Below are positions 17,049 through 37,298 of a DNA stretch of 64,000 nucleotides, piece by piece. A program made the position numbers and the translations under genes. How positions within the stretch are numbered: position 1 is the first letter of the stretch; each line of letters begins with the position of its first letter. Below the pieces are notes generated by a model, which ran no database searches, had not been told where the DNA came from, and saw nothing but the letters and a program-made list of their open reading frames with translations. The DNA comes from an uncultured Clostridia bacterium. Lineage in GTDB: Bacteria > Bacillota > Clostridia > TANB77 > CAG-508. Location of the stretch: positions 72,245 through 136,244 of the forward strand of contig CAKPOF010000004.1 in NCBI GenBank assembly GCA_934169725.1, read 5' to 3'.

Positions 17049-20000
17049 ATGAAAAACAAAATTTTTAAAATTAGTGTAGCTATAATGTTAATAATGACAC
17101 TAACTATGACTAATTTTATATTTTTGGGTGCAAGTCTTGTATCTTATGCAGCAGATAATGCAAGTACTAACAACAAAAATATAGAATTTAGTGCGTTTTT
17201 TAAGGATAGTGATGGTAATAGATTAACCACACTAGAAAGAACAGAAGACATGAAAGATATATCTTTATATCTATCTGTTAATGTTAATAAAGAAGGATTT
17301 TTTACAGGAGATGTAGAATTATCTAATGCAAACTTTACTTTTGCAAGTTGTGATAACCAAGCTGTAAGTAAAGTTGAAAGCAACAAGATACATCTAAATC
17401 AATTAAATGCAGGAACATCAACAGAAGTAGAAATAAAAATAACTCCTACAGATAAAGATGTATTTGACTTAAATATGTTAAATATTGAAAGTGAATTAAA
17501 ATTAACAGGTATCTACAGAGATAGTAGAGAAAAAGACATAAAAATAGATGCAACAAGAAAAGTTAATTTAAAATTGGCAGAAACAAATTCTAATACTGAT
17601 GTTGAAAATAGTTTAAAAGTAATTACAAATAAAGTGTTAAAAGTATCAGGTGAAGATAAAAGAGTTGTTCAAATTTCAATGAATATGGGATTAAAAAATA
17701 ACAATTATCCTATAAAAGAAATATATACAACAGTAAATGTTCCAGAAATAAATGGAAAAATGCCAGAAGTATCAAAAGAAGTTAACTTAAACACAATGAC
17801 AGCATCTGAATATAAAAATGAAAATGGATATGCAGAAATAACATTAAAAAATGAAAAAACAGAAACAAATAGTGTAAAATGGAAAAAACAAGGAAATGAA
17901 AATGTTATTCTTACATATATATATGATGCAAATGTTGACTTATCTAATATAGACATAACAGCACAAGAAAAAGTAAGTTTATATAATGATAAAGAAATAA
18001 CTTCAAATGAAGGAAAAGTAAAATTATCAAATGAAGAAATAGATTCAGCAATAGAAGTAAAAACATCTAATTCAGAAAACAGTATATATAAAGGAAAACT
18101 TTATTCATCAATTGATAAACAAATAGAAAGTACAACAACATTAGATGTTAATTTAGCAAATGTAGAAGAATATATTTCTATAAAAGAAGAAAATAGTAAA
18201 TACCAAGTAAATGAAAATGAAGCAAATGCTAATGTATATTATAATAAAACCACTATAAATAAAGATAGCTTTACTAAATTATTTGGTGAAGATGGAACAT
18301 TAACAATAAGCAATGAAAATGGAGAAGCACTAGCTGTAATATCAAAAGATACTGATACAGATGAAAATGGAAATGTAGTAATAGATTATACAGGTAGAGA
18401 ACCACAATCAATAGCAATAAAAACATCTACACCAAAGGCAGAAGGTACATTAGAAATTAAACATGTTAAAACAATAAAACCAATAGACATTAATACAATG
18501 AAAGCTGCTAACAAAATTGTTTCAAAAGTTGTATATGGATATAACAATTATAATCAAGGAAATGCAACATATACAAAAGGAATAGAAACAGAAGCAAATG
18601 CAGAAATAGAATTAAAAGAAACATCAACAGAAGCAAGATTAGAACTAAATAGAGATTCATTATCAACAGTTGTTTCTAATAATATAGAAATGAAATTAGT
18701 TTTAAAAACAGATGATGAATCAAAAGATTTATATAAAAATCCAATATTTAGAATAGAATTACCAGAACAAGTAGAAAGCATTCAAATTAATAAAGTTGAT
18801 TTATTATATGAAGATGAATTAAAAATTGCTAGTTGTACAACAGATGGAAGATACATTAATCTTAAATTAAATGGAGAACAAACTTCTTATAAAGCTCAAT
18901 CAATAGAAGGGGCAAATGTAATAATAGATGCAACAATAAATGTTAATAAAACATCAATTGCAAAACCAGAATCAATAAATGTATTATATAGAAACGAAAA
19001 AGCTAATGCATATGCAAATGGAGAAGAAGTAGGAAGAACATCTAAAGATATAGAAGTAGTTGCACCAAAAGATGTAACAGCTATAAATAGTATAAAAGCA
19101 TTAAATGTAGAAACAGTTGGAGAAAATGATACTAATAATGTAAGCTTACAAAGAGGAACAAATAGTAAACAAGTAGAAGTGAATTTTGAAGTTATAAATA
19201 ATAATGAAGAAAATGTACAAAATGTTAATTTAATGGGAACATTCCCAACAAAAACAGATGAAAACAATATTGATATAAAAGTTGTAGATGGAATAAAAGT
19301 TGATAATAGCAAAGTATATTATACAGAAAATGAAAATGCTACATCAGATTTAGGAAATTCTGCAAATGGATGGAAAGAAGAAATATCAAATCCAGAAACA
19401 GTAAAAAAATATTTAGTTGTTATGGATCAAATAGATTCAAGAACATCTGTAAATGGATCATATACAATAGATATACCAGAAAATCTAGAATATAACCAAA
19501 CAGCAAAAGAAGGATATGAAGTATCATATTTAAAAGGACAAGCACAAAATGCAAATACAGTAAAAGCAACAACAATTTCAATGGAAACTGGAGTTGGACC
19601 AAAACTAGAAAGTAAATTAACAGCAACAGTAGGTGGACAAGAATTAACTGATACAAGCAAAGTAAAATCAGGAGAAGTTATAAAATACAAAGTACAAGTA
19701 TCAAATGTAGGTTCAGAAGATGTAACAAATGTAAAAGTTACAGGACAAATACCAGAAGGAACATTTTTAGTACAACCAGTTGACAACTATGAATATGCAG
19801 GAACTGCATATTACAAAAGTGTAAAAGCAGATAATTATGAAACAACAATAGATAGCCTTAAAAAAGGTGAAGTTAAATATGTTGAATATGAAGTTATGGT
19901 TAGCACAAATACAGCAGATAATACATCAATAGCTAATACAGTTAAAATTAATTATTCAGATGTTAACCAAAATACTAATGAATCAAAAGTTTCTTCAGAA

Positions 20001-21974
20001 ACTGGAAACTTAAGAGCAATGGTAAAAAGAATTACTGATAGAAATGCTAGTTTATATGAAGGTGAAAGTGTAAAATATTTTGCAATTATAAAAAATACTT
20101 CATCAAGTCAAATAGATAATGTAAAAGTAAAAACCAATAAATCTGATAATTTAACAGTAGAAACATTAAAAATAATAACAGGTTTAAAAGATGAAGAGAT
20201 ATCTAACGACGATATGGTATTAACAGACTCATCTCAAAAAGATAATTCTGAAGAGCCAGATTCAGAAGAAACTGGAGATGGAACAGATGATAGCACAGAG
20301 GTAAATTCTGAAGAAATAAACTATGAAAATGAAGTTAATATAGGAACTATAAAACCAGGAGAAGTAAAAGTATTGTCTTATGGTATGCAAATAGGAAAAG
20401 CAGATAATAACGCATCTGAAATTTCAGTAGTTGCGTCTGATGGACAAAAGGAATATAAGTCAAACGTATGGTCAGATAAAATAAATAGTTTTGATGTTAA
20501 TATGTCAATAGAATCAAATACAGAAAGCAAATATGTTAGTTCAGGAGACCAAATAACATATACAATTAAAATAAAAAATAATGGAAAATCTGCAACGTCT
20601 GGAATAACTTTAAATGACGAAATTCCAGGAGCATTAACAATAAATAAAGTTTTAGTAGATGGTAATGAAAAAACAGTGAATTCAAATAATGTATATGCTG
20701 GAATCGTAGTACCAGCAAATTCAGAAAAAGTTGTAAATATAGAAACAACAGTTGATTATTCAGAATCAAGAACATCAGCAGAAACAATTACGAATAAAGC
20801 AGTAGCATTATTAGATGATGAACAAATAGCAACAACATCTGAAATAAATCATATAATAAAAGCTGATGCAACAGAGGATAATAGCAATGATGACAATAAT
20901 AATAGCAATAACAACGGCAATAATGGAGAAAACAATGGAAATATTGCTAATGGTAGTCAAATGATAAGTGGTGTAGCTTGGTATGATGAAAATGGAGATG
21001 GAAAGAAAGACAGTGGAGAAAAAACATTAAGTGGTATTACAGTTAAGTTATTAAATGTAAATACAAATCAATATGTAAAAACATCTTCAGGAGATGACTT
21101 ACAAACAACTACAAATGAAAATGGAGCATATGTGTTAGATAATATTGCAAGTGGAAAATATGTAGTAGTATTTGATTATGATAAAAATCAATATTCATTA
21201 ACTAAATATAAAGTTGATGGTGCAGGAGAATCTGTAAATTCTAATACAAGATTAAATGAATTAACAATAGGTGATTCAAAACAAGAAGTAGCATCAACAG
21301 ATATAATTAATATAGACCAAGAAAATATTTCAGATATAAATATAGGATTAATACAATTAAAGAATTTCGATTTAAAATTAGATAAATTTGTAAATAAAAT
21401 AATGGTTCAAAATTCTGCAGGAACAACAGTAAAAGAATATAACAATACAACAACTGCAAAAATTGAGTTAGATGCTAAACAAATAAAAGGTTCAACAATT
21501 ATAGTAGAATACAACATTGTAGTAACAAATGTTGGAGAAGTTGCAGGTTATGCAAGAAATATAGCAGATTATATGCCAAGTGATTTGAACTTCAGTTCTG
21601 AAATGAACAAAGATTGGTATAAAAAAGACAATACATTATACACAACTAGTATAGGTAATGATGTTATTAACCCTGGTGAATCAAAAACAGTAACATTAAC
21701 ATTGACAAAAACAATGGGTGAAGATAATGTTGTTGCAAGAAACAGTGCAGAAATTTATGAAGCTTATAATGATTTAGGATTAAAAGATAGCAATTCAACA
21801 CCAGGAAATAAAGCAAATGGAGAAAATGATATGGGATCAGCAGATGTAATCGTAAGTATTAGAACTGGTGGAGTAATTTATATGACAATAGGAATTGTTA
21901 TAGCAGTAGTATTAGTAGCTGGAATTACAGCTGGAATAATAGTAAAAAGAAAAAATTTAAAAGGTGAAGAATAG
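17049..21974 (+). CDS. Giant surface protein, type A (1641 aa): signal peptide, DUF11/CARDB-like repeat domains, SdrD B-like domain, C-terminal TM anchor
   Basis: The start at ATG 17049 follows GGAGGAGG. Signal peptide ..LVSYAADNAS. DUF11-like YKVQVSNVGSEDVTNVKVTGQIPEGT and YTIKIKNNGKSATSGITLNDEIPGAL. SdrD_B-like ISGVAWYDENGDGKKDSGEKTLSGITVKLLN..NGAYVLDNIASGKYVVVF. The C-terminus is SIRTGG followed by a TM segment and KRKNLKGEE. Confidence 0.85.
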   Translation: MKNKIFKISVAIMLIMTLTMTNFIFLGASLVSYAADNASTNNKNIEFSAFFKDSDGNRLTTLERTEDMKDISLYLSVNVNKEGFFTGDVELSNANFTFASCDNQAVSKVESNKIHLNQLNAGTSTEVEIKITPTDKDVFDLNMLNIESELKLTGIYRDSREKDIKIDATRKVNLKLAETNSNTDVENSLKVITNKVLKVSGEDKRVVQISMNMGLKNNNYPIKEIYTTVNVPEINGKMPEVSKEVNLNTMTASEYKNENGYAEITLKNEKTETNSVKWKKQGNENVILTYIYDANVDLSNIDITAQEKVSLYNDKEITSNEGKVKLSNEEIDSAIEVKTSNSENSIYKGKLYSSIDKQIESTTTLDVNLANVEEYISIKEENSKYQVNENEANANVYYNKTTINKDSFTKLFGEDGTLTISNENGEALAVISKDTDTDENGNVVIDYTGREPQSIAIKTSTPKAEGTLEIKHVKTIKPIDINTMKAANKIVSKVVYGYNNYNQGNATYTKGIETEANAEIELKETSTEARLELNRDSLSTVVSNNIEMKLVLKTDDESKDLYKNPIFRIELPEQVESIQINKVDLLYEDELKIASCTTDGRYINLKLNGEQTSYKAQSIEGANVIIDATINVNKTSIAKPESINVLYRNEKANAYANGEEVGRTSKDIEVVAPKDVTAINSIKALNVETVGENDTNNVSLQRGTNSKQVEVNFEVINNNEENVQNVNLMGTFPTKTDENNIDIKVVDGIKVDNSKVYYTENENATSDLGNSANGWKEEISNPETVKKYLVVMDQIDSRTSVNGSYTIDIPENLEYNQTAKEGYEVSYLKGQAQNANTVKATTISMETGVGPKLESKLTATVGGQELTDTSKVKSGEVIKYKVQVSNVGSEDVTNVKVTGQIPEGTFLVQPVDNYEYAGTAYYKSVKADNYETTIDSLKKGEVKYVEYEVMVSTNTADNTSIANTVKINYSDVNQNTNESKVSSETGNLRAMVKRITDRNASLYEGESVKYFAIIKNTSSSQIDNVKVKTNKSDNLTVETLKIITGLKDEEISNDDMVLTDSSQKDNSEEPDSEETGDGTDDSTEVNSEEINYENEVNIGTIKPGEVKVLSYGMQIGKADNNASEISVVASDGQKEYKSNVWSDKINSFDVNMSIESNTESKYVSSGDQITYTIKIKNNGKSATSGITLNDEIPGALTINKVLVDGNEKTVNSNNVYAGIVVPANSEKVVNIETTVDYSESRTSAETITNKAVALLDDEQIATTSEINHIIKADATEDNSNDDNNNSNNNGNNGENNGNIANGSQMISGVAWYDENGDGKKDSGEKTLSGITVKLLNVNTNQYVKTSSGDDLQTTTNENGAYVLDNIASGKYVVVFDYDKNQYSLTKYKVDGAGESVNSNTRLNELTIGDSKQEVASTDIINIDQENISDINIGLIQLKNFDLKLDKFVNKIMVQNSAGTTVKEYNNTTTAKIELDAKQIKGSTIIVEYNIVVTNVGEVAGYARNIADYMPSDLNFSSEMNKDWYKKDNTLYTTSIGNDVINPGESKTVTLTLTKTMGEDNVVARNSAEIYEAYNDLGLKDSNSTPGNKANGENDMGSADVIVSIRTGGVIYMTIGIVIAVVLVAGITAGIIVKRKNLKGEE

Positions 21975-21991
21975 AAAGGGGGGGAGAGTTA

Positions 21992-24900
21992 ATGAGTAAA
22001 ATGAAAAAATATTTTGCAGAAATAGTTATATTGATGATATCTATAATATGTCTTTTGAGTAATTTTTCAGGAGTAAAGGCAGCATCTGAATATAAATGGA
22101 GTAGTAAATACAAATTAGGAAAAACATTCTTTATTGACTATTCATCATATGAAGGTCATAAAACATTGTTTTGTGTTGAAAAAAACCAACATCAATATTC
22201 AGAAGGAAGAAACTATAAGATTATTGGTATAGCAGATATAACAGGTTTAGATGCAACAATAAAAACAAATAAGCATAAAGATGGTATAAAGAAAAATGGT
22301 TTAGGAAGAAATGCTAAATTAGCATACATAATATCTCAAAGTAAACATGCTGATGCTCAAGATGGAGTATGGCAATATATAAAAACATGGATAAAACATG
22401 TAGGTAAAGATGCAGGAATACCAGCAAATTTTGCAACTAGATATACAACAGATAATGGTGAAGATGTTGTAGATGATGCAGATTCATATATGGATAAATT
22501 AAAGAAAGCAGATATTGAAAATAAAACAAATAAAAATGCAATAAAGGTTGAATCATATAATAATCAATATAAAATTGGTCCATTTAAATGGAAATTTAAC
22601 ACAGCTTTATCAGAAATTACAGTATATGGAAAGAAAGACGATAAAGATAATCAAAAAATTTCAGGGGTTAAATTTGCACAATATAAGAATAAGACTTTAG
22701 AAAAAGTGTCTGTAAAAAATATAAAATCAGATAAGGATTTCTATTTATTAATTCCAAGTAATGGAAATTATACAGAAATTCAAAAAATTACAGCAAAAAG
22801 CGAAATAACAACAGAAGGAGCAAAAATATATTTTCTTCAATGTGTTGAAGAAAGTTGGCAAAACATAATTGCTGCAAACCCAAAACCAGGAAAGGCAGTA
22901 TTAGCAGATCTTACTGATAAAACTACAATACCACTATTAGGAAACTTAAAAGTTGAAAAAGTAATTAAAGGAGCTACAGATAAAAAATTATCAGGAGTAG
23001 GATTTATAATTCAAAAAACTGAAGAACCTAATAAAGGAAAATATGTAAAGAAAAATGGAAATAATATTGAATATGTATCAGAAGAAAGTGATGCTACAGA
23101 ATTTGTAACAGGAACAGATGGAACATTTAAAGTTGACAACCTACTTTTAGGAAAATATAAATTGATGGAAAAAACAGTTCCATATTATGGATTTGAAAAA
23201 GTAGATTCAGAGGTAGAAGTTAAAGCACCAACAAATTCAACTACAGGAAGATATACAACAAAACAAATTGGAAATGAACAAAAATATATAAAACTTTCTG
23301 GTTATGTATGGGTAGATGGAACTGATGGAAAGAATTCTAAGCCAAATTATTATTATGATTATGATAATAATAGTGATCAACTATTAGAAAATGTAAAAGT
23401 TGAGTTAGTAGACAAAACAAATGGTTCAGTAGTAAAATCTACAACAACTAAAAAAATAAGTGATGGTAATGGAAAAGACGGACAAATATTAAGATATTAT
23501 CAATTTACAGAGGTAGAAACTGAAAACTTAGATAAATATTATGTTAGATTCACATATGATGGATTAACATATAAAACTGTACCAGCAAATATTAATGCTA
23601 ATAATGGTTCAAAAGCTATAGAAAATAGTAATGATAGAACAGAATTTAATAACAAATTTAGTGTTGTACAAGGAGTTTCAGAAACAACTGGAGAGACATT
23701 AGATCAAAATGGAAATAAAGCATATGATTTATCATATACCAAAGATAAAGAACAACATACATCAACATTAAATAATAATGGATTACCAACAGGACAATTC
23801 CCAATAACTGCAAATACAAGTAATGCAGGATATGATATAAAATCACACTTTACATATGGACAAGAAGAAATACCATATATCAACCTAGGATTAGTAAAAA
23901 AAGAACAACCAGATTTAGCTTTAATAAAAGATATGCAAAATGTACGATTATCTGTAAATGGATATGAACATGTTTATGAATATGCTCAAAGATTTAAAAA
24001 TCAAGGTGGGTATGGAGACGGATTTAATGTAGGTGTTAAATTCGGAACAGGAAATTATGATAAACCATATACAAGAGCAATATATAAATCTGATTATGAA
24101 TATGTAAATGAAGCTGATGCGTCAAAAGAATTGAAAGTATATATAACATATAGAATAGCAGTAAGAAATGAGTCAACAAATTTAGTATCACAAGTAAATA
24201 GCTTAGTAGATTATTATGATAGCACTTACCAAAATGCTAAAAAAGGTTCAGGAGTTAATGAAAAAGGTGAACTTACAGGTGATGTAGAAACACTAACAAC
24301 TGAAAGATATAATGACAAATATTCAAAAGCTATAATAAACATGAATACAAAAATAGAAGCAGAAAAACAAGAAGAAATATATGTACAATTTGAGTTAAGC
24401 AGAACGGCAGTAGCAAGTTTATTACAAGATCAAACAACATTAGACAATGTAGTTGAAATAAATTCATATACAACATTTGGTAAAGATAATGAAGGAAATC
24501 TATATGTACGTGCTGGTGTAGATGTAGATTCAAATCCAGGAAATGCAATTCCAGGAGATAAATCAACATATGAAGATGATACAGACTCAAGTCCATCATT
24601 AAAATTAGAATTAGCTGACGCAAGAGAATTAACAGGTAAAGTATTCTTAGATTCAACTGATCGTGAACTAAAAGTAGGACAAGTAAGAGAAGGTGATGGT
24701 AAATACACAGATGGTGAAAAAGGAATTAAAGATGTAAATATTACATTTAAAGAAAATACTGGAAGTGGAAAAACATACACAGCTACAACAGATGAAAATG
24801 GTGACTTCATTATTAAAGATTATATACCAGGTGATTATACATTAACATATACATGGGGAGATAAAACATATACAGTACAAAATTATAAAGGAACAATATA

Positions 24901-26008
24901 TGATAAAAATAGATATAATCAAAATATAGCTAATAAAGAGTGGTATAAAAATGATGTAGAAACTAGATGGACAGATGCAGTAGATAATTATGAAACAAGA
25001 AAAGCCATTGATGCTGAACTTACAAAGATTGATAGTGAAACAACACCAACTATAGACAAGATGGATTCAACAACACCAACAATGGGAATAGGTGTAGAAT
25101 ATGATACAACAACAACAGCATCATCAGGTGATAAATACACATATGTAATTAAAAATATTGATTTTGGTATTGTTGAAAGAGCAAGACAAAATATCGAACT
25201 AGAAAAACGTGTTAAATCAATGAAAGTTACATTAGCAAATGGACAAACATTAGTAAACGTAACAATCAATGCTGATGGAAAAATAGAAGGTGAAAAATCT
25301 AGTTTAACATATCTTGCACCTTCACCAAGTAATGCAAATGGAACAGTTAGACTTGAAATGGACAGTGAATTAATTCAAGGTTCAAAGCTAGAAGTTACTT
25401 ATGAAATAAAAGCAGTTAATAGAAGTGAATTAGATTACATATCTGAAGATTTCTATAAATATGGTGAAGTAAAAGGTAGTGTAGTAACTATTAAACCATC
25501 AAAGGTTATAGATTACTTAGATAGTGATTGGGATTTCAATTCAGATAATAATTCTGGATGGATATATGTAAATGCAACAGATGGAGATTTAGAAAGAAAT
25601 AACATAAAATTAAAATATGATATTAACAATACTAAAAGCATAAAAGACAGAAAAATATTATATACAACAAAATTTGAAAAAGATTTAAAACCTACAGAAG
25701 AAGACAAAGTTGAGTTAAATACTTCTAAAATATTAACATCATCAGGAGATATTGAATTAGATAATGAGAGTGAAATTATAGAAATTACAAAAACAGGAGG
25801 AGGAACTCCAAAAGATTCAACACCAGGTAACTATGTACCAGGTAAAGGACCATATGAATCAGATGATTCAAGAGCAGAAAAAATAATTATAACACCTAAC
25901 ACAGGTGAAAACCATAATTATATACTTCCAATAGCAGTAATAATGTCAGCATTTATCATATTAGGTTCAGGAATAGTATTTATTAAGAAAAAAGTTCTAA
26001 ATAAATAA
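21992..26008 (+). CDS. Giant surface protein, type B (1338 aa): signal peptide, Cys-containing N-terminal adhesin-like domain, SpaA/Cna-B-type domains, C-terminal TM anchor
   Basis: Signal peptide ..FSGVKAAS. Prealbumin-fold-like GNLKVEKVIKGATDKKLSGVGFIIQK..TDGTFKVDNLLLGKYKLMEK. SdrD_B-like LTGKVFLDSTDRELKVGQVREGDGKYTDGEKGIKDVNITF..DENGDFIIKDYIPGDYTLTY. The C-terminus is TPNTGE followed by a TM segment and KKKVLNK. Confidence 0.85.
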   Translation: MSKMKKYFAEIVILMISIICLLSNFSGVKAASEYKWSSKYKLGKTFFIDYSSYEGHKTLFCVEKNQHQYSEGRNYKIIGIADITGLDATIKTNKHKDGIKKNGLGRNAKLAYIISQSKHADAQDGVWQYIKTWIKHVGKDAGIPANFATRYTTDNGEDVVDDADSYMDKLKKADIENKTNKNAIKVESYNNQYKIGPFKWKFNTALSEITVYGKKDDKDNQKISGVKFAQYKNKTLEKVSVKNIKSDKDFYLLIPSNGNYTEIQKITAKSEITTEGAKIYFLQCVEESWQNIIAANPKPGKAVLADLTDKTTIPLLGNLKVEKVIKGATDKKLSGVGFIIQKTEEPNKGKYVKKNGNNIEYVSEESDATEFVTGTDGTFKVDNLLLGKYKLMEKTVPYYGFEKVDSEVEVKAPTNSTTGRYTTKQIGNEQKYIKLSGYVWVDGTDGKNSKPNYYYDYDNNSDQLLENVKVELVDKTNGSVVKSTTTKKISDGNGKDGQILRYYQFTEVETENLDKYYVRFTYDGLTYKTVPANINANNGSKAIENSNDRTEFNNKFSVVQGVSETTGETLDQNGNKAYDLSYTKDKEQHTSTLNNNGLPTGQFPITANTSNAGYDIKSHFTYGQEEIPYINLGLVKKEQPDLALIKDMQNVRLSVNGYEHVYEYAQRFKNQGGYGDGFNVGVKFGTGNYDKPYTRAIYKSDYEYVNEADASKELKVYITYRIAVRNESTNLVSQVNSLVDYYDSTYQNAKKGSGVNEKGELTGDVETLTTERYNDKYSKAIINMNTKIEAEKQEEIYVQFELSRTAVASLLQDQTTLDNVVEINSYTTFGKDNEGNLYVRAGVDVDSNPGNAIPGDKSTYEDDTDSSPSLKLELADARELTGKVFLDSTDRELKVGQVREGDGKYTDGEKGIKDVNITFKENTGSGKTYTATTDENGDFIIKDYIPGDYTLTYTWGDKTYTVQNYKGTIYDKNRYNQNIANKEWYKNDVETRWTDAVDNYETRKAIDAELTKIDSETTPTIDKMDSTTPTMGIGVEYDTTTTASSGDKYTYVIKNIDFGIVERARQNIELEKRVKSMKVTLANGQTLVNVTINADGKIEGEKSSLTYLAPSPSNANGTVRLEMDSELIQGSKLEVTYEIKAVNRSELDYISEDFYKYGEVKGSVVTIKPSKVIDYLDSDWDFNSDNNSGWIYVNATDGDLERNNIKLKYDINNTKSIKDRKILYTTKFEKDLKPTEEDKVELNTSKILTSSGDIELDNESEIIEITKTGGGTPKDSTPGNYVPGKGPYESDDSRAEKIIITPNTGENHNYILPIAVIMSAFIILGSGIVFIKKKVLNK

Positions 26009-26014
26009 TATATA

Positions 26015-26056
26015 AAAAAGAAAAAGTAGATTAATATCTGCTTTTTCTTTTTTTGC
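26015..26056 (+). terminator. Intrinsic terminator ending the A-B operon
   Basis: AAAAAGAAAAAG-loop-CTTTTTCTTTTT followed by a T-run. Confidence 0.7.
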
Positions 26057-26131
26057 CTTAAAGCTTACGTAAATAAGGGTTTAAATATATTTATAAAAAA
26101 TTAAAATGAAATCAATAAATATAAAAAAGAG

Positions 26132-26222
26132 ATGTAACAAAAATGTAAAAAAAATTTAATATTTTCTTGTAAAAAGTAAAAATAATATTTTCCGCAACAC
26201 GATATATGTCACATTTTGTAAT
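26132..26222 (+). promoter_or_regulatory. Second cluster of (A/T)TGTAAY boxes upstream of the A'-B' operon
   Basis: ATGTAAC 26132, ATGTAAA 26143 (11-bp spacing), TTGTAAA 26167, TTGTAAT 26216, all on the same strand as in the first array. Confidence 0.4.
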
Positions 26223-26247
26223 AAACAAAAAATGGAAAAATAAGATA

Positions 26248-26276
26248 TTGATTAAAAAATAAAGATGAAAGATAAT
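26248..26276 (+). promoter_or_regulatory. Candidate sigma-A promoter of the A'-B' operon
   Basis: TTGATT (26248-26253), a 17-nt spacer, then GATAAT (26271-26276). Confidence 0.4.
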
Positions 26277-26307
26277 AAATTATATTATTGAAATAGTGGG
26301 GGATATT

Positions 26308-29300: not shown

Positions 29301-31974
29301 CATAAATGTTGCAACTATAAAAAATAATATAAAACAGGCAGAAGTAAAAGCAACTTTAGAAAATGCACGTTGGGAAGGCGAAAAAATTTATTTAGAGCAA
29401 TCAGTTCAATTAAATTTGACTATAGAGAATACAAGTGGAAAAGATTTAACAAATTTAAAAGGTACAATAAAATTGCCTGATGGAGTATATTGTAAAGATC
29501 CAGATGCGTTAATTTTAAGTACAGATGGTGATGATGATAATGAAGAAGAGCAAGGTGAAGATGAAATAGAAAACAATGAAAATGATGATGCAAATGAAGA
29601 TGAAAAAGAAGATGATTCAGATGAGGCAGAAGATGGAAGTATAGATATAGGAGAAGGATCAATTATAGCAAATCGAACATATGATGACGATAAAAAAATA
29701 ATGTCTTTTGAATTGTCAGAGTTAAAAGCTCAGGAGAAGGTAAAATTGGAGTTATATGTATATGCAGAAGATTTTAAAGGTGAGTCAAAGAATTTTAACT
29801 TTTTATATAGCATGCAATCTGAAAATACGTATAATTCAAATGTAGTAAATTTGGATGTAATAAACACAATAAGAGATGTAGTAGCAGAACAGACTGCTAA
29901 TATTGATAGTGGTAAAACTTTAAAAGATGGAGATAAATTTGAATTAAAATTAACAGTAAGTAATAACGATAAAGAAGATTTATGGGTAACTATAAATGAA
30001 GAATTAGATGGTGGGTTAAATTTAAAGAGTGCAAAAATAAAGTATTTAGGAACAGAAAATGAAGTAGTAGTGTCTGGAAATGATGAAGAAGAAGATAATG
30101 AAGAATATGAAGAAGATATTACAACAGAGGAAAAAGAGAGTGAAGAGGATAGTAATGAAAATGGACAAGAAGAGATGAAAGAATATAGCAATGAAAACGA
30201 GTCGGAAGAGAATGAAAATGAGGATAAAGAAGGATTTAGTGCAAGTGTAGAACAAATAAAAGGCCAGCAAGAAATAAAAGCAAATTCCAAGATAGAAATT
30301 ATAATGCAAATAGAAGTTGAAGAAGCAAATGTTGAGGGAAGTGAAGATCAAGAAGAGAATCAAGTTGTAGTTTTAAATAGTTTAGCAACTATTACATATG
30401 GTAAAAAATCAGAATATGAAGAGTATACAACTGATTGGAATCATACATTTACTGTGAATAAAGAATTTAATGTAATGACAGAAATTGATGATGAGAAAGA
30501 ACAAGTGTCAATAACACAAACAGCAAATCCAGAAGATAAATCAATGTTACAAGATAAACAAAAAACAGAATATATCTTTGAAATAAGAAATAATAAAAAT
30601 TTTGATATTGAAACAACATTAATAGACTATATTCCTAAAGGAATTGTTGTAGAAAAAATTACTTTAGATGGAAAACAAATCGGAAATACAAATAAGATTA
30701 AAGTAAAAAATTATGAGATGGAACCGGGACAAATATCAAATTTAAAAATAGAAGGTTATTTTGATAAAAAGAAAGCGGTTAATGATCCAATAGTAAATAG
30801 TTTAACAGCAGAAACAGATGGAGAAAGCATAATATCAAATAGTATTACATATAAAACAGATAAATCTAAGGTAAATCCAAATAACCCAACGAAACCGGAT
30901 AATCCAAATAATCCTAGTAATCCAACAAATCCAGGAGATTCTAACAATGGAAATAATGCAGGAAATGGTCAATATTCGATAAGTGGAATTGCATGGGTTG
31001 ATTCAAATAAAGATGGAAAAAGAGATGATTCTGAAAAAGTACTAGCTGGAGTAGGAGTTAAAGTTATAGACGCAGAAAAGGGAACATATGTAAGTGATAT
31101 AAATGTAAAAACAAGTGATAACGGAGAATATAAAGTAAATGTAGATTCAGGAAATTATATATTGGTGTTTTCATATGATACATCAAGATACAATTTGACT
31201 CAATATAAAGCAAGTGGAGTGTCAAATGATAAGAATTCAGATGTTATTAGTAAAGATATAACAATTGATGGAAACATTGAAACAGTAGGAGCTACAGATA
31301 ATTTACAAATAGATTCATCAAATTTAATAAATATTGATATAGGTTTAACAGAGTCAGCTACCTTTGACTTAGAACTGGATAAATACATAAATGAGATTAC
31401 TGTACAAACAAACAAAAATACAACAAAATATGGATATAATAAACAAAATTTAGTAAAAGTAGAGATTGGAGCAAAAGAATTGAATAATTCTACTGTAATT
31501 ATGAGATATTCAATACAAGTAACTAATACAGGAGATGTAGCAGGTTATGTGCAAAACATTATAGATTATATGCCGTCAGATTTGAAATTTAAATCTGAAT
31601 TGAATTCAGATTGGTATGAATCTAATGGAGCATTGTATAATACAAGTTTATCAAATACAGCAATACAACCTGGAGAATCAAAAAATGTTAATTTAGTACT
31701 TGTTAAAAATATAAATGAAACTAATACTGGAACAGTTGTAAATACAGCTGAAATAGGAAAAGCAAGTAATGCATTAGAACTTGATGATGTGGATTCTACA
31801 CCAAATAATAAAAAAGCGGATGAAGATGATTATGGAAAAGCCGAAGTTATTATAAGTGTAAAGACAGGTTCTGTTGTAATGTATATATTTACAATATTCT
31901 TAAGCTTAGCAATAATTGCCCTTGGAACTTATGTAATAAACAAAAAACTTACAAAATATGATATAGAATTTTAA
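26308..31974 (+). CDS. Giant surface protein, type A' (1888 aa), paralogue of type A with acidic and Pro/Asn-rich inserts
   Basis: The start at ATG 26308 follows GTGGGGGA. The N-terminus (VKFEAYFKEKD..SLYLYIKV) and C-terminus (ISGIAWVDSNKDGKRDDSEKVLAGVGVKVID..; VAGYVQNIIDYMPSDLKFKSELNSDWY) align with protein A. The C-terminus is SVKTGS followed by a TM segment and a basic tail. Confidence 0.85.
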   Translation: MRENLKKLLTIILIIITLSSFDVVFLGNKIVKAVADSLETYSDNTNNVNVKFEAYFKEKDKKTHNVKKNISNQDTSLYLYIKVQDRGILDNAKVKIDDSNFKIKTNEITNSNIKNINLDSNEIELNSITHGNEIELEIPVEFKKVDSLKSEYFSKETNISMEGTYRNDEKEETIKGKIITRIDWSDDENITLSENIEKCVDLKDNQMLLEQNIISKIEQGELPRENESLKIAVPEISNEKPTNVKVIFNGSKIEDSNISYDNKNGELKINVIANKDENDNTIWSKNKTNVYKVIYLYDNVSKENVSKVKLKTEMNTKVFTKDVISNKAEDEIEVNLNGNLVSIQKNIIPGVYKGYLYANSQNRTEYKENNTVEISNIDNIQNLKIYTDNTYFKDGNNTKYDANNLIKYEETYLNKNKMMEIFGEDGYINVKNATGNTIQTIDKNTETDENGKITIKYEENTSNIVLETSKPVKEGMFTIQNQKYVNGETGYAKEQLKQFLKLNTNGKVETNLSTDETNIDMNLMDTKTEAKLEVNNSNISTLQKNENIEFRLTLKTSSPENDLFKNPTFEIKIPNVISNISVKSVNTVSSEMFNITEQKIVDNENGEKVIRISLQGEQTEYTNEINETAIVVNADIETNILTPSQKANIETTYTNENGNEKTYKLNTDLNIQSKSGMMIYNNISNYNNAKDSIYTIDDNVPMGALDLRSNSNVATVKSAIINNFGQDIENVTIVGRIPKNGQADGSVDSTLIKGIETNLNGVEILYSENINAKNGDDSWKEDPTNASIYMIKIDNMQAQQVAAIQYEIQVPEDIGYGKKLSEETNVKYTISGNTQTQKSRVQAKTEELINKNVMNLANSAETTENGLTVNISTVSAGSELKDGDSIYEGEHIVYTAQITNNTGNELKNVGVKATQTKGKIYGLYAEETYDPNVGEDSKKVQYRYKELDTSEKEFAKSETLANGESKTITYEIVVQEVEGENEQTYGNLVISANGLNNDINVATIKNNIKQAEVKATLENARWEGEKIYLEQSVQLNLTIENTSGKDLTNLKGTIKLPDGVYCKDPDALILSTDGDDDNEEEQGEDEIENNENDDANEDEKEDDSDEAEDGSIDIGEGSIIANRTYDDDKKIMSFELSELKAQEKVKLELYVYAEDFKGESKNFNFLYSMQSENTYNSNVVNLDVINTIRDVVAEQTANIDSGKTLKDGDKFELKLTVSNNDKEDLWVTINEELDGGLNLKSAKIKYLGTENEVVVSGNDEEEDNEEYEEDITTEEKESEEDSNENGQEEMKEYSNENESEENENEDKEGFSASVEQIKGQQEIKANSKIEIIMQIEVEEANVEGSEDQEENQVVVLNSLATITYGKKSEYEEYTTDWNHTFTVNKEFNVMTEIDDEKEQVSITQTANPEDKSMLQDKQKTEYIFEIRNNKNFDIETTLIDYIPKGIVVEKITLDGKQIGNTNKIKVKNYEMEPGQISNLKIEGYFDKKKAVNDPIVNSLTAETDGESIISNSITYKTDKSKVNPNNPTKPDNPNNPSNPTNPGDSNNGNNAGNGQYSISGIAWVDSNKDGKRDDSEKVLAGVGVKVIDAEKGTYVSDINVKTSDNGEYKVNVDSGNYILVFSYDTSRYNLTQYKASGVSNDKNSDVISKDITIDGNIETVGATDNLQIDSSNLINIDIGLTESATFDLELDKYINEITVQTNKNTTKYGYNKQNLVKVEIGAKELNNSTVIMRYSIQVTNTGDVAGYVQNIIDYMPSDLKFKSELNSDWYESNGALYNTSLSNTAIQPGESKNVNLVLVKNINETNTGTVVNTAEIGKASNALELDDVDSTPNNKKADEDDYGKAEVIISVKTGSVVMYIFTIFLSLAIIALGTYVINKKLTKYDIEF

Positions 31975-31991
31975 GAGAAAGGAGGTAAAGA

Positions 31992-34900
31992 ATGAAATTT
32001 TATAGGAAAATAGTAGTAAATATTATTGTTATATTTATATTAGTACTAATTATACAATTTCTGTACAATATTTCAATGGCTGCAAATTTTAAAATGAAAG
32101 ATATGTTAGATAAAGCTAAAATTTTTTCTGAAAATAATAATGAATTTGTAACTAAATATCATGTTAAAGATGAATTATATAGCGATAGTGGAATAATAAG
32201 TGATAATGATAATTATTTATGGTTATGTTTAGGACATGGAAAGTATTCAGGAATAGACAATGTCAATGATATAAAATGTGCTTTAGATATTAATATGAAA
32301 AATGATGGAAGCACAAGCTTTGGAAAATATACAAGTAAAATAAAACATGGAACAGGAACTTCTCAGAATGATAAAAAAAATACGACACAGGTAAAAAAAT
32401 TAGCATATTTAGCTTGGATATCAAATGTTGATAAAAAAACTGGATATGCGGATACTCCGAGTACGAAGGGAACATTACATTGGTATATATATGTTGCAAA
32501 TGATATGGACAAATTAATTGGAAAATTTTACTATAAAATAAAAAGAAGAGGTGGATATCCATCAGGAAAAGATAAAAAAGTAATGAATAGAGCTGAGAGA
32601 TATGCCAAAACGGAATCATCAGAATCAACAGCAAAAATAACCAAGAAAACGACTAATCCCAAAATGACTAAAAAGAAATATAAAGGCACTGAATATATGT
32701 ATATAGGCCCATTTAAAATAAATACAAAGGGAACAGTAACAAAGGTCACAACACAAGTTAGTGCTGGAACGTATGAAACTAAAGGAATAGCTACTAAAGT
32801 AGGAGGAGAAGTAAAAGGAGATTTAAAAAGAATACAAAATAATAAAAAATTTTATATTGCAACAAAAAGGAGTCAAATAAAAAGTGCAACTAGTGCAAAG
32901 GTTACATTGTATACGAAAGGAACACAAGGTGGAGCAACCATAATAGATAAAAATGGTAAATTAAGTAATGGATATATTCAAGCAAGATTATTATTTATAG
33001 GGCATAGTACAGGACAATCACAGCTTATTTTTGCAGGTAGAATAAAAAAAGGAAGCACAGTGACTGATAGTGTAACATGGGACTTAAATACAACGTCAAA
33101 AGGACATTTAAGTGTGAATAAAATAGGAATATATGCTGGAGATGATGAATATGAAGATGTTCAAGGAATAAAATTTAAATTATATGTTATGAGTGGTAAT
33201 AATAAAAAGTATGTTAAAATAAATGGTTCAAGTTCTATTACAAATGGTGCTGTTACAGTAACATCACAAAGTAATAATGAAAGTAGTTCTAAGGCAACTG
33301 TATTTACAACACCTGCAAGTGGAACTGTTGATATAAATAATATTGCTTTAGGTAAATATTATATTGAAGAAACTTCAGAAAGTAATCAATATAGAAGAGA
33401 TATTTACGAGGCTAAAGTGAAAATTGGTAGTTCTGATGAAACTGATGCAACAATAGTAAATTCGACAACAGTTGGACCAATAGAAGTAAAAACTAATACA
33501 GAAACATCTTTGACATTGAAGGATTATAGACAAAGAGGAGCATTAAAAATAATAAAACAAGATGAAGAGAGTGGAAAAAGATTGGCTAATGTTGGATTTA
33601 AAATATATAATAGTGATACATATAATTATTTAGTGTCTTCAAAAAATCAATGGGATGGAAAATATTGGATGGATCCTAGACCAGAAAATGGATTTACAGA
33701 AAATGAAGATAACGCAACAATATTTTATACAGATAACAATGGAGAAATATATATAGAACATTTAGATGCTGGAAACTATGTAATTCAAGAAATTAGTAAT
33801 CCAAATTATGGCTATTTAGAAATGGTTGGTGATAGTGAAGTAGAAGTTGGTAAAGATGATAATCCTAAAATATATATAATAAATAATAAGAAAAATACAG
33901 GTAACTTAAATATAAGTAAATTGGATTATGATAATAGAAATTTAACAATATCTAATGTTGATTTTAAGTTAGCGATAAAAGATGATGATGGTAGTGAAGA
34001 ATACGTGGTTATAAATAACATAGGAAATGGTATTGCACAAGGCACAACTCTAATTTCAGATAATTCAGGTATGAGAATGACAAAAAATAGTTCAGAAGCA
34101 ACAACATTCAGAACAGATAATAATGGTCAAATAAAAATATTAAATATGCTTGAGGGAACATATGAAGTAAAAGAAATATCTGTAGGATACAATTTTGGGT
34201 ATGATATAGATGGAAATTATATATGGTATAAAACCGATGAACCAGATGAAAATGGTAATTATATTGAACAAAAATTATCAGAAGATGAAGATGGAGAGAT
34301 TGTTGTTACTGTTGAACATCAAAGTTCTTTAGAAACTAGTAATGTAAATACTAACCAGTATAATAGAGTTTATGTATATAACAAACGAAAATACATCAAA
34401 GTAAGTGGATTTGCATGGGAAGACAGAATAAATGATAATAAAGAAAGCAAAAAAGATTCACGATGGGTAGAAAATACAGATGATAAAAGATTACAATATG
34501 TACCAGTTACATTAAAAAAAGCAGATGGAAGCGTAATAGGAAGCACAATAACAGATAAAGATGGAAAATACGTATTTGGTGATTATGAAAATGATAGTAA
34601 TGCACAAAAGATATTAATTGAAGATTTAAAAGGTGCATATGTAGAATTTGAATATAATGGAATGGGATATAAATCATTAGATGATTATGATAAACCGGAA
34701 TTTTCATTACAAGAAAAGAAAAATTCAGATGGCAAAGTTATGTCGAAAATAGTAGTAAATGATAAAAATACAGCAACAGACAGTGATTTAAGAGACGATT
34801 TTAATAATAAATATGCAACAATAGGAAAAAATAGTTCTTTTAACAATAATAATCAAAAGACATATGATATAAGATATAATTCAAGTAATCATGAAAGCAA

Positions 34901-37298
34901 AGTTATTTATGGTAATAATTTGAAATATGGATATGAAGGACAAAAATATCCGATATCAGGTATAGATGATCAATACAAAATAAAAGCACATACAAAGCAA
35001 AAGACAGAAAATATAATTTGTACAGATTACACAATAGATACACTTAGACAAAATGGAATATCAGAGGTTAGTGGTATAAATTTAGGTGTTGTAGAAAGAG
35101 AAATGCCAGATTTAGCTATAACAGAAGATATGGAAAAAGTTGATATTAGTTTAAATGGATATACACATACTTATAAATATGAACAAAGATATAAAAATGC
35201 AAATGAATTTGCTGGTGGAGATGGATTTAATGTAAATGTAAAATTTGCAAGTAAATATTCAGAAAATTCATATACTAGAGAAGTATATGCATCAGATGTT
35301 GTATATAATAATCAAGCAGAAAATAAAGGAAAATTAAAAATTTCTATGACATATAAAATAAGATTAAGAAATGAAGCAACAGGATTAACTAGTATAATAA
35401 AAACATTAGCCAATTATTATGATGCAAGGTATGATAGTATTGATGTAAAGGATTCAGAAGGAAATAGTTTAAAAGTAGAAACAGCAGGTGGAGGAAATGG
35501 TTTAAGAAGAGCTAATATTACTTTAAATCAACAATTGAAAAAAGAAACTACTAAAGAAATATATATAACTTACAATTTGGGTAATGACGCAATAAACAGT
35601 TTATTAAATGATAATATGACATTAAATTCTGTAAGTGAAATAGCATCATATTCTACAATAGAAGGTGATAATAAGGCATATGCTGGTATAGATATAGATT
35701 CTGCACCAGATAATGCAACACCAACAGATACAAATACATATGAAGATGATACAGATAGAGCTCCATCATTAAAACTACAATTGAAAGATCCAAGAGTAGT
35801 ACAAGGTACAGTTTGGGAAGATGGTGCAATACAAAGTTTATTAAAGAAACAAGGTTATGAAAAACAAAGAGTTGGTGATGGAATATATGATACAAAAGAG
35901 AATACAGTAAAAAAAGTAAAAGTAGAATTAATATCTAAACAAGAAGGAAAAGTAGCAAAATTGTATAATACAAATAATGCTATATCAGATGCTGTAACAG
36001 AAACAGATGAAAAAGGTAAATATATCTTTACAGGTGTTATACCAGACAAATATTATGTAAGATTTACATATGGAGATAATAGTGTTATCTATGATCCTCA
36101 GGGAAACGTTAAGAAAAATGTAGTGGCAGAAGACTATAAGTCTACAATTTACAGAGGAGGAAATAAACAAGCCGTAGCAGCAATGACAGATTACTGGTAT
36201 AGAGGGGAAACAAGTGATAAAAATGTATCAAGATTATCAGATGCAAAAGATACAATTGGAGTAAATCAAGATGGAACTGAAATACCAGATATAGTAAATA
36301 ATAGAACAACAGAAAATGAAATTACATATGAGACAGCATCTAAGAGTAGGGGATTAAAAGAAATAAAAGCTGATACAAGAGAGTTTGATATAAAATTGGA
36401 ATATGATATTAATTTAAATAATACAACAGAATATATAGATGAATTTGGAAATAATAAATTAATATTTAAATTTGATAATATTGACTTTGGTATAATAGAA
36501 AGACCTATACAAGAATTAAAACTAAAGAAAGAAATTGACAATGTTAAAATATCACTTGCAAATGGAGTTAATTTGGTAAATGGAAATCCAAAAACTGAAA
36601 CTTTATCAGGAGTTAAAATTTTAGGTGATGATGTATATGTTGAAATGGATAATGAATTAATGCAAGGTGCTAAATTGACAGTAAAATACGCAATAAGTGT
36701 AGATAATAGTGGATGTGAAATAGATTATAATGACGAAGATTATTATATCTATGGCACAGTGCCAGCAAATAATGAGAATTATATGATAGCAACAGTAGTT
36801 GATATGTTTGATTATTTACCAGAGGATGTTACATTAAATACAACAGATCAAGAAGACTGGAAAATTCAAAAAATAACAAGTGATATGAAGGGAAAATTAC
36901 TTTCAAACGAGGTATATAAGGCAGTAGAAAAACGTACAAATATAGTTCATTTAAATCCTGCAAAGAAAGTATTTGAAATGGAACCTGGTTCAGAACGTCG
37001 TAGTACAAGTTTGACAGTGGATAAATTGTTAACAAGTTCATCTGATGATTTAACTTTTGAAAATGATATAGAAATAATCAAATTAAGAGGAAGAAAATCA
37101 AGAAATTCTACACCAGGTAATTATAATCCAACAACAAATCAAATACATGAAGAAGATGATGATAATGTAACTTTAACAATAACAGGCCCAACAGGTAGTA
37201 ACAAACAATATGTTGTTTATGGAGTAGTAGGAATAAGTATGCTAATTGTAATTGGTATAGGAATAATAGTAATTAAGAAAAAGATATTAAATAAATAG
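31992..37298 (+). CDS. Giant surface protein, type B' (1768 aa), paralogue of type B with three SpaA/Cna-B-type domains
   Basis: RBS AAAGGAGG. Blocks PDLAITEDMEKVDISLNGYTHTYKYEQRYKN and IDIDSAPDNATPTDTNTYEDDTDRAPSLKLQL align with protein B. Prealbumin-fold repeats include GALKIIKQDEESGKRLANVGFKIYN.. and GNLNISKLDYDNRNLTISNVDFKLA... The C-terminus is TGPTGS followed by a TM segment and KKKILNK. Confidence 0.85.
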   Translation: MKFYRKIVVNIIVIFILVLIIQFLYNISMAANFKMKDMLDKAKIFSENNNEFVTKYHVKDELYSDSGIISDNDNYLWLCLGHGKYSGIDNVNDIKCALDINMKNDGSTSFGKYTSKIKHGTGTSQNDKKNTTQVKKLAYLAWISNVDKKTGYADTPSTKGTLHWYIYVANDMDKLIGKFYYKIKRRGGYPSGKDKKVMNRAERYAKTESSESTAKITKKTTNPKMTKKKYKGTEYMYIGPFKINTKGTVTKVTTQVSAGTYETKGIATKVGGEVKGDLKRIQNNKKFYIATKRSQIKSATSAKVTLYTKGTQGGATIIDKNGKLSNGYIQARLLFIGHSTGQSQLIFAGRIKKGSTVTDSVTWDLNTTSKGHLSVNKIGIYAGDDEYEDVQGIKFKLYVMSGNNKKYVKINGSSSITNGAVTVTSQSNNESSSKATVFTTPASGTVDINNIALGKYYIEETSESNQYRRDIYEAKVKIGSSDETDATIVNSTTVGPIEVKTNTETSLTLKDYRQRGALKIIKQDEESGKRLANVGFKIYNSDTYNYLVSSKNQWDGKYWMDPRPENGFTENEDNATIFYTDNNGEIYIEHLDAGNYVIQEISNPNYGYLEMVGDSEVEVGKDDNPKIYIINNKKNTGNLNISKLDYDNRNLTISNVDFKLAIKDDDGSEEYVVINNIGNGIAQGTTLISDNSGMRMTKNSSEATTFRTDNNGQIKILNMLEGTYEVKEISVGYNFGYDIDGNYIWYKTDEPDENGNYIEQKLSEDEDGEIVVTVEHQSSLETSNVNTNQYNRVYVYNKRKYIKVSGFAWEDRINDNKESKKDSRWVENTDDKRLQYVPVTLKKADGSVIGSTITDKDGKYVFGDYENDSNAQKILIEDLKGAYVEFEYNGMGYKSLDDYDKPEFSLQEKKNSDGKVMSKIVVNDKNTATDSDLRDDFNNKYATIGKNSSFNNNNQKTYDIRYNSSNHESKVIYGNNLKYGYEGQKYPISGIDDQYKIKAHTKQKTENIICTDYTIDTLRQNGISEVSGINLGVVEREMPDLAITEDMEKVDISLNGYTHTYKYEQRYKNANEFAGGDGFNVNVKFASKYSENSYTREVYASDVVYNNQAENKGKLKISMTYKIRLRNEATGLTSIIKTLANYYDARYDSIDVKDSEGNSLKVETAGGGNGLRRANITLNQQLKKETTKEIYITYNLGNDAINSLLNDNMTLNSVSEIASYSTIEGDNKAYAGIDIDSAPDNATPTDTNTYEDDTDRAPSLKLQLKDPRVVQGTVWEDGAIQSLLKKQGYEKQRVGDGIYDTKENTVKKVKVELISKQEGKVAKLYNTNNAISDAVTETDEKGKYIFTGVIPDKYYVRFTYGDNSVIYDPQGNVKKNVVAEDYKSTIYRGGNKQAVAAMTDYWYRGETSDKNVSRLSDAKDTIGVNQDGTEIPDIVNNRTTENEITYETASKSRGLKEIKADTREFDIKLEYDINLNNTTEYIDEFGNNKLIFKFDNIDFGIIERPIQELKLKKEIDNVKISLANGVNLVNGNPKTETLSGVKILGDDVYVEMDNELMQGAKLTVKYAISVDNSGCEIDYNDEDYYIYGTVPANNENYMIATVVDMFDYLPEDVTLNTTDQEDWKIQKITSDMKGKLLSNEVYKAVEKRTNIVHLNPAKKVFEMEPGSERRSTSLTVDKLLTSSSDDLTFENDIEIIKLRGRKSRNSTPGNYNPTTNQIHEEDDDNVTLTITGPTGSNKQYVVYGVVGISMLIVIGIGIIVIKKKILNK

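Follow-up and report, generated by a model that had tools for sequence, protein, structure and literature searches.

Giant paired surface-protein genes with probable thioester-type heads at a fixed locus of uncultured gut Clostridia

The closest described counterparts of the proteins considered here are the TIE proteins BaTIE (BasC), EfmTIE86 and SaTIE (structures 6FWV and 6FWY; PMC6194298). Their heads combine a helical lobe, an inserted beta-sandwich and a long twisted hairpin, and carry a Cys in the motif [YFL]C-phi-zeta and, about 200 residues further on, a Gln in the motif phi-Q-zeta-phi-phi. A third, helical motif (TQxx-phi-W) is non-essential. The head stands on CnaB-type isopeptide domains, the protein ends in a sortase signal, and for other thioester adhesins a covalent bond to an amine of the ligand has been shown (PMC6194298). 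A second group of relatives is formed by the fibrillar adhesins with CLIPPER, DUF7507 and SdrD_B domains, very long proteins in which a signal peptide is followed by tandem CLIPPER domains, SdrD_B and a C-terminal sorting domain; CLIPPER, listed as DUF11, is a CnaA-like isopeptide stalk domain (bioRxiv 10.1101/2025.04.25.650565; PMC9210967). Four consecutive genes of an uncultured Clostridia bacterium, here named A, B, A' and B', appear to join these two designs in one locus. They lie on contig CAKPOF010000004.1, in a stretch of 64,000 nucleotides (nt) that is referred to below as the window, and together they occupy one third of it.

It is fairly probable that A-B and A'-B' are paralogous operons for giant, Sec-exported fibres held at the cell wall, with B and B' as TIE-type adhesins and A and A' as stalk-only rods. 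An earlier note on this DNA had taken the four proteins for a new kind, with no known assembly route. Neither point stood, the first being refuted by the criterion that the note itself had set: domain and structure searches fit B and B' to the characterised TIE architecture and A and A' to known stalk domains, and each of the four has a Sec signal peptide and, overlooked in the note, a sortase-type sorting signal. What is new lies elsewhere, in a thioester-type head too diverged for current sequence models, in an obligate stalk-only partner kept at a fixed chromosomal site across an uncultured gut lineage, and in a recurrent precursor form that has both a sorting signal and a signal peptide in its interior.

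The lineage concerned comprises uncultured, low-GC, spore-forming Clostridia from human, mouse and rabbit guts. Provided that the heads work as thioester domains, the operon would be the main candidate of this lineage for binding covalently to host or mucus. Current domain models do not recognise heads as diverged as these, and annotation therefore misses such adhesins. Two features, the invariable presence of a stalk-only partner and the recurrent single-reading-frame form, go beyond the textbook picture of sortase substrates, and together they offer a natural test case for the export, maturation and fixed ratio of very long surface proteins.

An ancient duplication at a fixed site

All four genes are on the plus strand. 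Gene A (17049-21974) is an open reading frame (ORF) of 1641 amino acids (aa), and B (21992-26008) one of 1338 aa. Their respective paralogues are A' (26308-31974; 1888 aa), which has long Asp/Glu-rich inserts, and B' (31992-37298; 1768 aa). Both the ORF lengths and the pairwise relationships noticed earlier were confirmed. In BLASTP alignments, A and A' are 25% identical across roughly 1000 aa at the N-terminus (4e-56) and 44% identical in the last 320 aa (2e-75), and B and B' are 31% identical across roughly 1100 aa (4e-108); the best scores, 266 bits for A/A' and 365 bits for B/B', compare with at most 26 bits in 20 shuffles. Collinear DNA similarity between the copies persists in patches, at 65-74%. 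These comparisons indicate a duplication that is real but old. A and B are themselves alike in their C-terminal thirds (22% identity, 5e-9).

Relatives were collected in a scan of one genome per species, which found relatives of B in 285 stretches. The analyses use the best 79 loci, whose ORFs were called and then classified by BLASTP. All 79 come from metagenome-assembled genomes of uncultured gut Clostridia from human, mouse or rabbit samples, including Clostridium sp. CAG:343. Among the scored candidates, 170 relatives of B and 547 of A were found at E <= 1e-10, almost all of them metagenomic. The N-terminal rod of A, used as the query of an exhaustive search, matched 1091 clusters (clustered at 50% identity), of which 547 reach E <= 1e-30; almost all have a length of about 1,600 aa and match at the same position.

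The conserved A+B pair that the earlier note had proposed is borne out by these loci. Every B-type gene with upstream DNA is directly preceded by an A-type gene, and no unpaired B-type gene occurs in the 79 species. The A-to-B spacer is mostly 17-21 nt (79 A-B junctions), and the B-to-A' spacer about 300 nt. Wherever the contig extends far enough, the genes follow the order mreD-PBP-minC-[two small minus-strand ORFs]-A-B (PBP, penicillin-binding protein), and independent metagenome contigs have the same order. What follows A-B is more variable: A' and B' as two genes in about 32 loci, one ORF of 2,556-3,176 aa in 23, spoIIE directly in 4, and the end of the contig in the remainder.

The same position after minC across the lineage marks a fixed, vertically inherited locus and not an insertion among core genes. 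The block does lie between minC upstream and spoIIE downstream, as had been noted, but the idea that core genes would be expected there gives way to a lineage-wide locus at that position in 79 species. A recent or mobile insertion was considered and rejected on the same ground and on base composition, with GC flat at 0.21-0.29 over the A-B-A'-B' block in a window of about 26% GC.

The history of the two copies can be read from their nearest relatives. For first-position copies, the nearest relative is another species' first-position copy in 66 of 67 cases, and second-position and fused copies are nearest to one another in 44 of 45. The pattern is the same for A-type and B-type genes. Copies thus group by position across species, which implies that a single ancient duplication copied the A-B pair as a unit. 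Within the proteins, conservation climbs from the distal head (0.49-0.58) to the wall-proximal part (0.69-0.76), a gradient that would fit a variable, exposed tip on a constrained base.

Architecture of the B-type and A-type proteins

From its N-terminus, B is composed of a signal peptide, a thioester-domain head, a CnaB/SpaA domain, two modules that each join an SdrD_B-like to a CLIPPER-like domain, and a sorting signal. The head (aa 31-315; 22082-22936, plus strand) is probably a Class II-like thioester domain, judging from its modelled fold and its motifs. Residues 31-330 were modelled with AlphaFold2 (AF2) from a 36-sequence alignment, giving a mean predicted local distance difference test score (pLDDT) of 86.7. 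The only PDB fold matches of this model with E <= 0.001 in Foldseek are two Class II thioester domains, 6FWY of Enterococcus faecium TIE86 (E 7e-7) and 6FWV of Bacillus anthracis BaTIE (2e-5), with a probability of 1.0 over 270-283 aligned columns. It resembles the heads of the TIE proteins in combining a helical lobe with an inserted beta-sandwich, and in its long twisted hairpin.

The motifs point in the same direction. Cys61 of B (codon 22172-22174), in LFCVE, fits [YFL]C-phi-zeta and sits on the N-terminal strand, and Gln290 (codon 22859-22861), in WQNII, fits phi-Q-zeta-phi-phi, 229 residues after Cys61 and between the long hairpin strands (residues 230-254 and 262-284 of the model fragment). 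These two residues are the predicted reactive pair, between which a thioester bond would form. A possible counterpart of the TQxx-phi-W helix motif in B is AQDGVW (aa 122-127), with an orthologue consensus of P-V-Q-N-A-I-W at the start of the long helix; roughly one orthologue in three has Ala in place of its Gln, and the segment is absent from fused-type heads. The sequence V-Q-N-A-I-W was also considered as the bond-forming Gln motif and rejected, as it would correspond to the non-essential helix motif, the predicted bond-forming Gln being Q290 (PMC6194298).

Across first, second and fused copies, the bond-type Cys is kept in 107 of 112 B-type heads (64/67, 23/24 and 20/21, respectively) and the Gln in 109 of 112; in a 30-sequence head alignment the Gln is invariant. 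The head is nonetheless the least conserved part of B-type proteins, and BLAST finds no alignment between those of B and B'. The diverged head of B' spans aa ~30-385 (32079-33146, plus strand), with Cys79 at 32226-32228 and Gln342 at 33015-33017. Fused-copy heads are some 50 residues shorter and have no TQxx-phi-W-like helical segment, with Cys and Gln retained (L003:18515-19243, L006:19603-20283 and others).

Behind the head of B follows a CnaB/SpaA-type isopeptide domain (22943-23281, plus strand; PF17802) with the triad K323, E393 and N428, which is conserved among orthologues. In PDB searches the profile of B matches the pilin isopeptide domains 9LTY, 4OQ1, 4UZG and 3PHS, and the whole-B profile finds only pilin CnaB and SdrD domains. 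Pfam recognises SpaA once in B, and SpaA three times and SdrD_B twice in B', in line with the SpaA/Cna-B-type domains that the earlier note had given for the B type. The 3' part of B encodes the two modules, each an SdrD_B-like domain and a domain of about 200 aa; nothing relevant was found for them in Pfam (E <= 5) or NCBIfam (E <= 0.1).

B and B' have the characterised TIE architecture in that a Class II thioester-type head is followed by isopeptide-type stalk domains and, at the end, a sortase signal. They differ from the solved TIE proteins in being two to three times longer, in a stalk that mixes SdrD_B-like and CLIPPER-like modules, and in a TPxTG in place of an LPxTG motif. They differ, too, in genetic context, for a stalk-only partner gene always precedes B, and we know of no such partner gene for the solved TIE proteins.

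The partner, A, begins with a signal peptide (aa 1-47) and an all-beta, Ig-like rod (aa 48-860), followed by CLIPPER/DUF11-type domains (aa ~865-1254), SdrD_B (aa 1309-1409), a CLIPPER-like wall-proximal domain (aa ~1426-1600) and a sorting signal. Pfam finds DUF11 twice and SdrD_B in A, and DUF7507 also matches in its C-terminal half (Pfam/NCBIfam). The domain content that the earlier note had given for the A type therefore stands for A, but A' has only a weak match to DUF7927. In a permissive Pfam scan the wall-proximal domains of A and A' score as DUF11 at 24.5 and 19.9 bits. The wall-proximal module, SdrD_B plus a CLIPPER-like domain, is common to A-type and B-type proteins.

Pfam recognises nothing in the first 813 residues of A, which AF2 models with confidence as all beta (pLDDT 88.9). 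Foldseek relates this rod only to generic tandem Ig-like stalks, among them PrgB, integrin legs, macroglobulin (MG) domains and antigen I/II. The best of these matches, PrgB (8BEG, E 1e-19) and the antigen I/II family (7L0O, E 3e-11), have template modelling (TM) scores of at most 0.22 and 8-9% identity, a generic likeness of tandem beta-sandwiches with nothing function-specific. Sequence searches of the PDB with A and B gave no match. An adhesive head could be identified in neither A nor A' by Pfam, nor by Foldseek of the A rod. A and A' are thus stalk-only rods built of known fibrillar-adhesin stalk domains. Set against the parts that define fibrillar adhesins, B and B' have stalk, adhesive head and anchor, and A and A' have stalk and anchor. 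A and A' share with the CLIPPER fibrillar adhesins the signal peptide, the tandem CnaA-like CLIPPER domains, SdrD_B, the sorting domain and the great length, but have no recognisable adhesive head, an Ig-like N-terminal 810 aa with generic stalk matches only, and a place as obligate operon partners of a thioester-type adhesin.

Two further observations concern the A-type genes. The Asp/Glu-rich, low-complexity inserts of A' fall in its CLIPPER-like region, at ~29570-29730 and 30230-30420 (aa ~1090-1140 and ~1310-1370), and A has a shorter acidic insert at the matching place (aa ~1075-1105). In some relatives two or three ORFs stand in place of an intact A, such as ones of 1103 and 533 aa (L001:5067-9981; an 81%-identical relative, L002; L048, L066 and L070), which suggests occasional pseudogenisation, phase-variable frameshifts or assembly errors.

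Sorting signals, single-ORF forms and the relation between the partners

Each of the four proteins has an N-terminal Sec signal peptide and, at the C-terminus, a hydrophobic helix with an xTG motif before it and a basic tail after it. The sorting signal of A (21855-21971) consists of SIRTG, a hydrophobic helix of 25 aa and KRKNLKGEE, and that of B (25892-26005) of TPNTG, a hydrophobic helix and KKKVLNK. The motif is SVKTG in A' (31855-31971) and TGPTG in B' (37182-37295), all on the plus strand, and none of the four proteins has the canonical LPXTG pentapeptide. The C-terminus of B passes the NCBIfam LPXTG_anchor model TIGR01167 (18.4 bits against a cut-off of 15.9); that of A has no NCBIfam anchor match. 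Two motif classes recur across species, [SG][IVL][RK]TG in 64 of 67 A-type orthologues and TP[NASP]TG in 59 of 67 B-type orthologues.

Both classes can be compared with the substrates of Clostridioides difficile SrtB, clostridial surface proteins that likewise end in a non-LPXTG motif, a hydrophobic helix and a basic tail. Those substrates carry (S/P)PXTG, and NVQTG of CbpA is not cleaved by SrtB in vitro (PMC4155245). The B-type TPxTG is one residue from the SPxTG of C. difficile, and the A-type S-I/V-x-T-G resembles the CbpA motif, so that wall anchoring has good support in the case of B and less in that of A. Organism, size and domain content all differ.

In the sequence of events that would follow from these signals, each pair is transcribed as one mRNA, and the 17-nt spacer with its strong ribosome-binding site would couple the translation of both proteins. 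A and B would be exported by Sec and retained at the membrane by the C-terminal helix, until a sortase encoded elsewhere cuts after the Thr of xTG and links both to peptidoglycan, side by side. The thioester head of B, held tens of nanometres off the wall, could then bond covalently to an amine of its ligand, whether on host, mucus or another cell. A would be the longer companion and the bulk fibre of the coat, sharing its wall-proximal module with B.

Several observations weigh against this reading. The match of the B head to 6FWY and 6FWV has a TM score of only about 0.31, with a root-mean-square deviation of 8-10 Å. Neither the Pfam thioester-domain model TED (PF08341) nor the NCBIfam TQXA models match the B head, permissive thresholds included, and PDB profile searches returned no thioester domain, either with the whole-B profile or with a 30-sequence head profile, which gave only chance matches (E > 0.3). 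Sortase genes are absent from the 64-kb window, as the earlier note had said of the neighbourhood, and from the 10-kb flanks on either side of 84 related loci. The A-type motif contains no Pro, abuts the helix directly and resembles the uncleaved NVQTG, so that A may stay anchored in the membrane. Finally, each protein has its own export and anchoring signals, and conserved adjacency could therefore reflect shared regulation only. Searches with the isolated heads of B and B' likewise gave nothing relevant in Pfam (E <= 5) or NCBIfam (E <= 0.1). Sequence models being blind to the B head, its membership among thioester domains rests on fold, motifs and context, not on hidden Markov models.

One way to account for the missing sortase and the unusual A-type motif is that the C-terminal helix is a permanent membrane anchor, at least in A and A', and that xTG is no more than the end of the last beta-strand. 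The Pro-less motif, the helix that follows at once, the lack of an NCBIfam anchor match and the behaviour of NVQTG in vitro (PMC4155245) would all fit this account. It fails to explain why Thr-Gly is found at this boundary in essentially all A-type proteins, fused-ORF junctions included, or why B passes a curated LPXTG-anchor model, and the C-terminal architecture is the rule for sortase substrates (PMC6194298, PMC4155245). We regard a permanent anchor as unlikely. SLH and CWB2 repeats, which serve non-covalent wall binding, were found in none of the four proteins by Pfam or NCBIfam; an S-layer protein was rejected for this reason.

The reading of A and B as two sortase substrates extends to the loci in which A' and B' form one ORF. 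There are 26 such ORFs, of 2556-3176 aa, from 23 species loci and 3 metagenome contigs. The first half is A'-like and the second half B'-like, and the source gene calls on the 3 independent metagenome contigs give a product of about 2,938 aa. In all 26, the junction keeps an A'-type xTG and, after it, two hydrophobic helices, the first of about 22 residues; a short loop rich in Lys/Arg separates them, and the second is followed by an AxA-like site. These parts correspond to the sorting signal of A' and the signal peptide of B', joined in one unbroken frame. Nearest relatives can differ in state, fused or split, and 9 of 45 nearest-neighbour pairs cross states. In one locus (L019), A' and B' are in frame, with one stop codon and one further codon between them.

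Because the junctions keep both processing signals, the single ORFs do not prove a physical fusion of A' and B', and a classical domain fusion was rejected for these ORFs of about 2,900 aa. That the product is a polyprotein processed by sortase and signal peptidase belongs to the preferred reading, and is considerably more likely than a covalent joining of A to B. The precursor would insert as a membrane hairpin, from which the two enzymes would release the same two products, in a ratio of 1:1. A precursor that gives rise to two surface proteins has a parallel in C. difficile, where SlpA is cut into the high- and low-molecular-weight S-layer proteins. The single-ORF form of about 23 species resembles SlpA in this and in its predicted 1:1 output, but its junction is an internal sorting signal plus signal peptide, predicted to form a membrane hairpin, instead of a protease site. 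A narrow literature search found no published precedent for an internal sorting signal.

The placement of an A' sorting signal beside a B' signal peptide in the membrane, together with strict pairing, joint duplication and two distinct sorting-motif classes, each kept in both paralogues and across species, would also be consistent with a covalent two-component fibre, a sharpened form of what the earlier note had suggested. Here a dedicated sortase would use the Pro-less A-type signal to link A covalently with B, through either a Lys of B or its new N-terminus, as with the pilins of sortase-built pili, and only B would be attached to the wall. A comparable case is the Streptococcus pyogenes pilus, in which the thioester protein Cpa stands beside a second isopeptide-domain fibre protein, the backbone pilin, with a class C sortase, and the sorting-motif variant differs between partners, as it does in A-B. 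There are differences: A and B are proteins of 1,300-1,900 aa against pilins of 30-100 kDa, both partners have full wall-sorting signals, and A keeps a complete helix and basic tail of its own. The pilin motifs YPK and [VIL][YF]PK occur in none of the four proteins, and no sortase, of class C or otherwise, adjoins the genes in the window or the flanks of related loci; a sortase-built pilus was rejected on these grounds. B-type proteins show no conservation at their predicted mature N-termini, and a B carrying A on its N-terminus would bury in mid-fibre a thioester head of a kind that is normally distal (PMC6194298). A covalent fibre of this sort seems quite improbable. We think just as little of an undescribed route, without pilins or a dedicated adjacent sortase, in which the A-type signal would join A to B, and not to the wall, while sortase and signal peptidase excise the hairpin of the single ORF, so as to build an obligate, giant heteromeric fibre.

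At the other extreme, A and B could be independent adhesins that share an operon, with neither contact nor dependence between them and with an adjacency that stems from vertical inheritance and co-regulation. Each protein does have its own signal peptide and sorting signal, the fused ORFs keep their processing signals and need not imply a physical domain fusion, and linkage alone is weak evidence, since the neighbourhood of mreCD, PBP, minC and spoIIE is as syntenic as A-B itself. Independence is harder to reconcile with the lack of any unpaired B-type gene in 79 species, the constant length of the A-B spacer, a duplication that copied both genes and was followed by the retention of both in each copy, and several switches between split and single-ORF states, which fix a 1:1 output. 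We regard it as rather unlikely. Strict pairing, joint duplication and the repeated single-ORF form suggest instead that A and B act as a unit, in which they might also be in contact.

Expression signals and neighbouring genes

In each pair the two genes are separated by exactly 17 nt, as had been noted, with a ribosome-binding site before the second ATG: GGGGGGAG in the A-B spacer (21975-21991) and AGGAGG in the A'-B' spacer (31975-31991), both on the plus strand. The stop and start codons at the A-B junction (21972-21994) lie exactly 10,000 nt 5' of those at the A'-B' junction (31972-31994). The equal spacer length is conserved biology; the round offset is coincidence.

The earlier note had assigned each pair its own promoter and terminator. 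Upstream of A, a sigma-70-type promoter-like site, TTGAAA-17-TATAAT (16943-16971, plus strand), agrees with the consensus at 11 of 12 positions, although it is a consensus match only, and such sites are no commoner in the region than in shuffles. Upstream of A' there is only a weak match (9/12, at 26248-26276). After B', a hairpin resembling an intrinsic terminator, followed by a T-run (37304-37337, plus strand), was found by the terminator scan, with 0.0 such hairpins expected in shuffles against the 1 found. The structure after B (26020-26055, plus strand), an AT-rich hairpin with a 12-bp stem and a TAAT loop, then a T-run, was read by eye; the scan missed it because the stem has few G-C pairs.

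On the 5' side the genes run radC-mreB-mreC-mreD-PBP-minC, followed by two small minus-strand ORFs and then A-B-A'-B'. On the 3' side come spoIIE, a WG-repeat protein and a 412-aa protein, with rpoB and rpoC further downstream. The position of spoIIE directly after the locus might suggest a spore-surface appendage, or exosporium fibres made during sporulation. The locus is linked just as tightly to mreBCD, PBP and minC, the promoter-like site before A is of the sigma-A type, Sec and sortase-type signals are typical of vegetative wall proteins, and Pfam and NCBIfam found no spore-coat or exosporium domains in the four proteins. A role on the spore is thus highly improbable, and wall-held fibres remain the preferred reading.

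Upstream, minC (15246-15857) has no adjoining minD or minE, and no MinD/ParA-type Pfam match was found among the scanned ORFs of at least 150 aa in the window. In all related loci minC is likewise followed by the two small minus-strand ORFs and not by minDE. These ORFs (15860-16213 and 16210-16683, minus strand) overlap each other and are divergent from the A-B operon. One encodes 117 aa with a hydrophobic C-terminal tail, the other 157 aa rich in Asn and Ser, and neither has a Pfam or NCBIfam match. They lie between minC and A in nearly all of the 79 related loci, and could be regulators or accessory factors of the A-B operon.

Downstream, spoIIE, the WG-repeat protein of 506 aa and the 412-aa protein, for which no family match was found, form a block (37538-42737) that is kept in related loci. 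In a 49%-identical relative (L003:23189-23948), the fused ORF is followed by a 225-aa ORF and a cohesin-domain protein in place of spoIIE, and the downstream boundary of the locus therefore differs among species.

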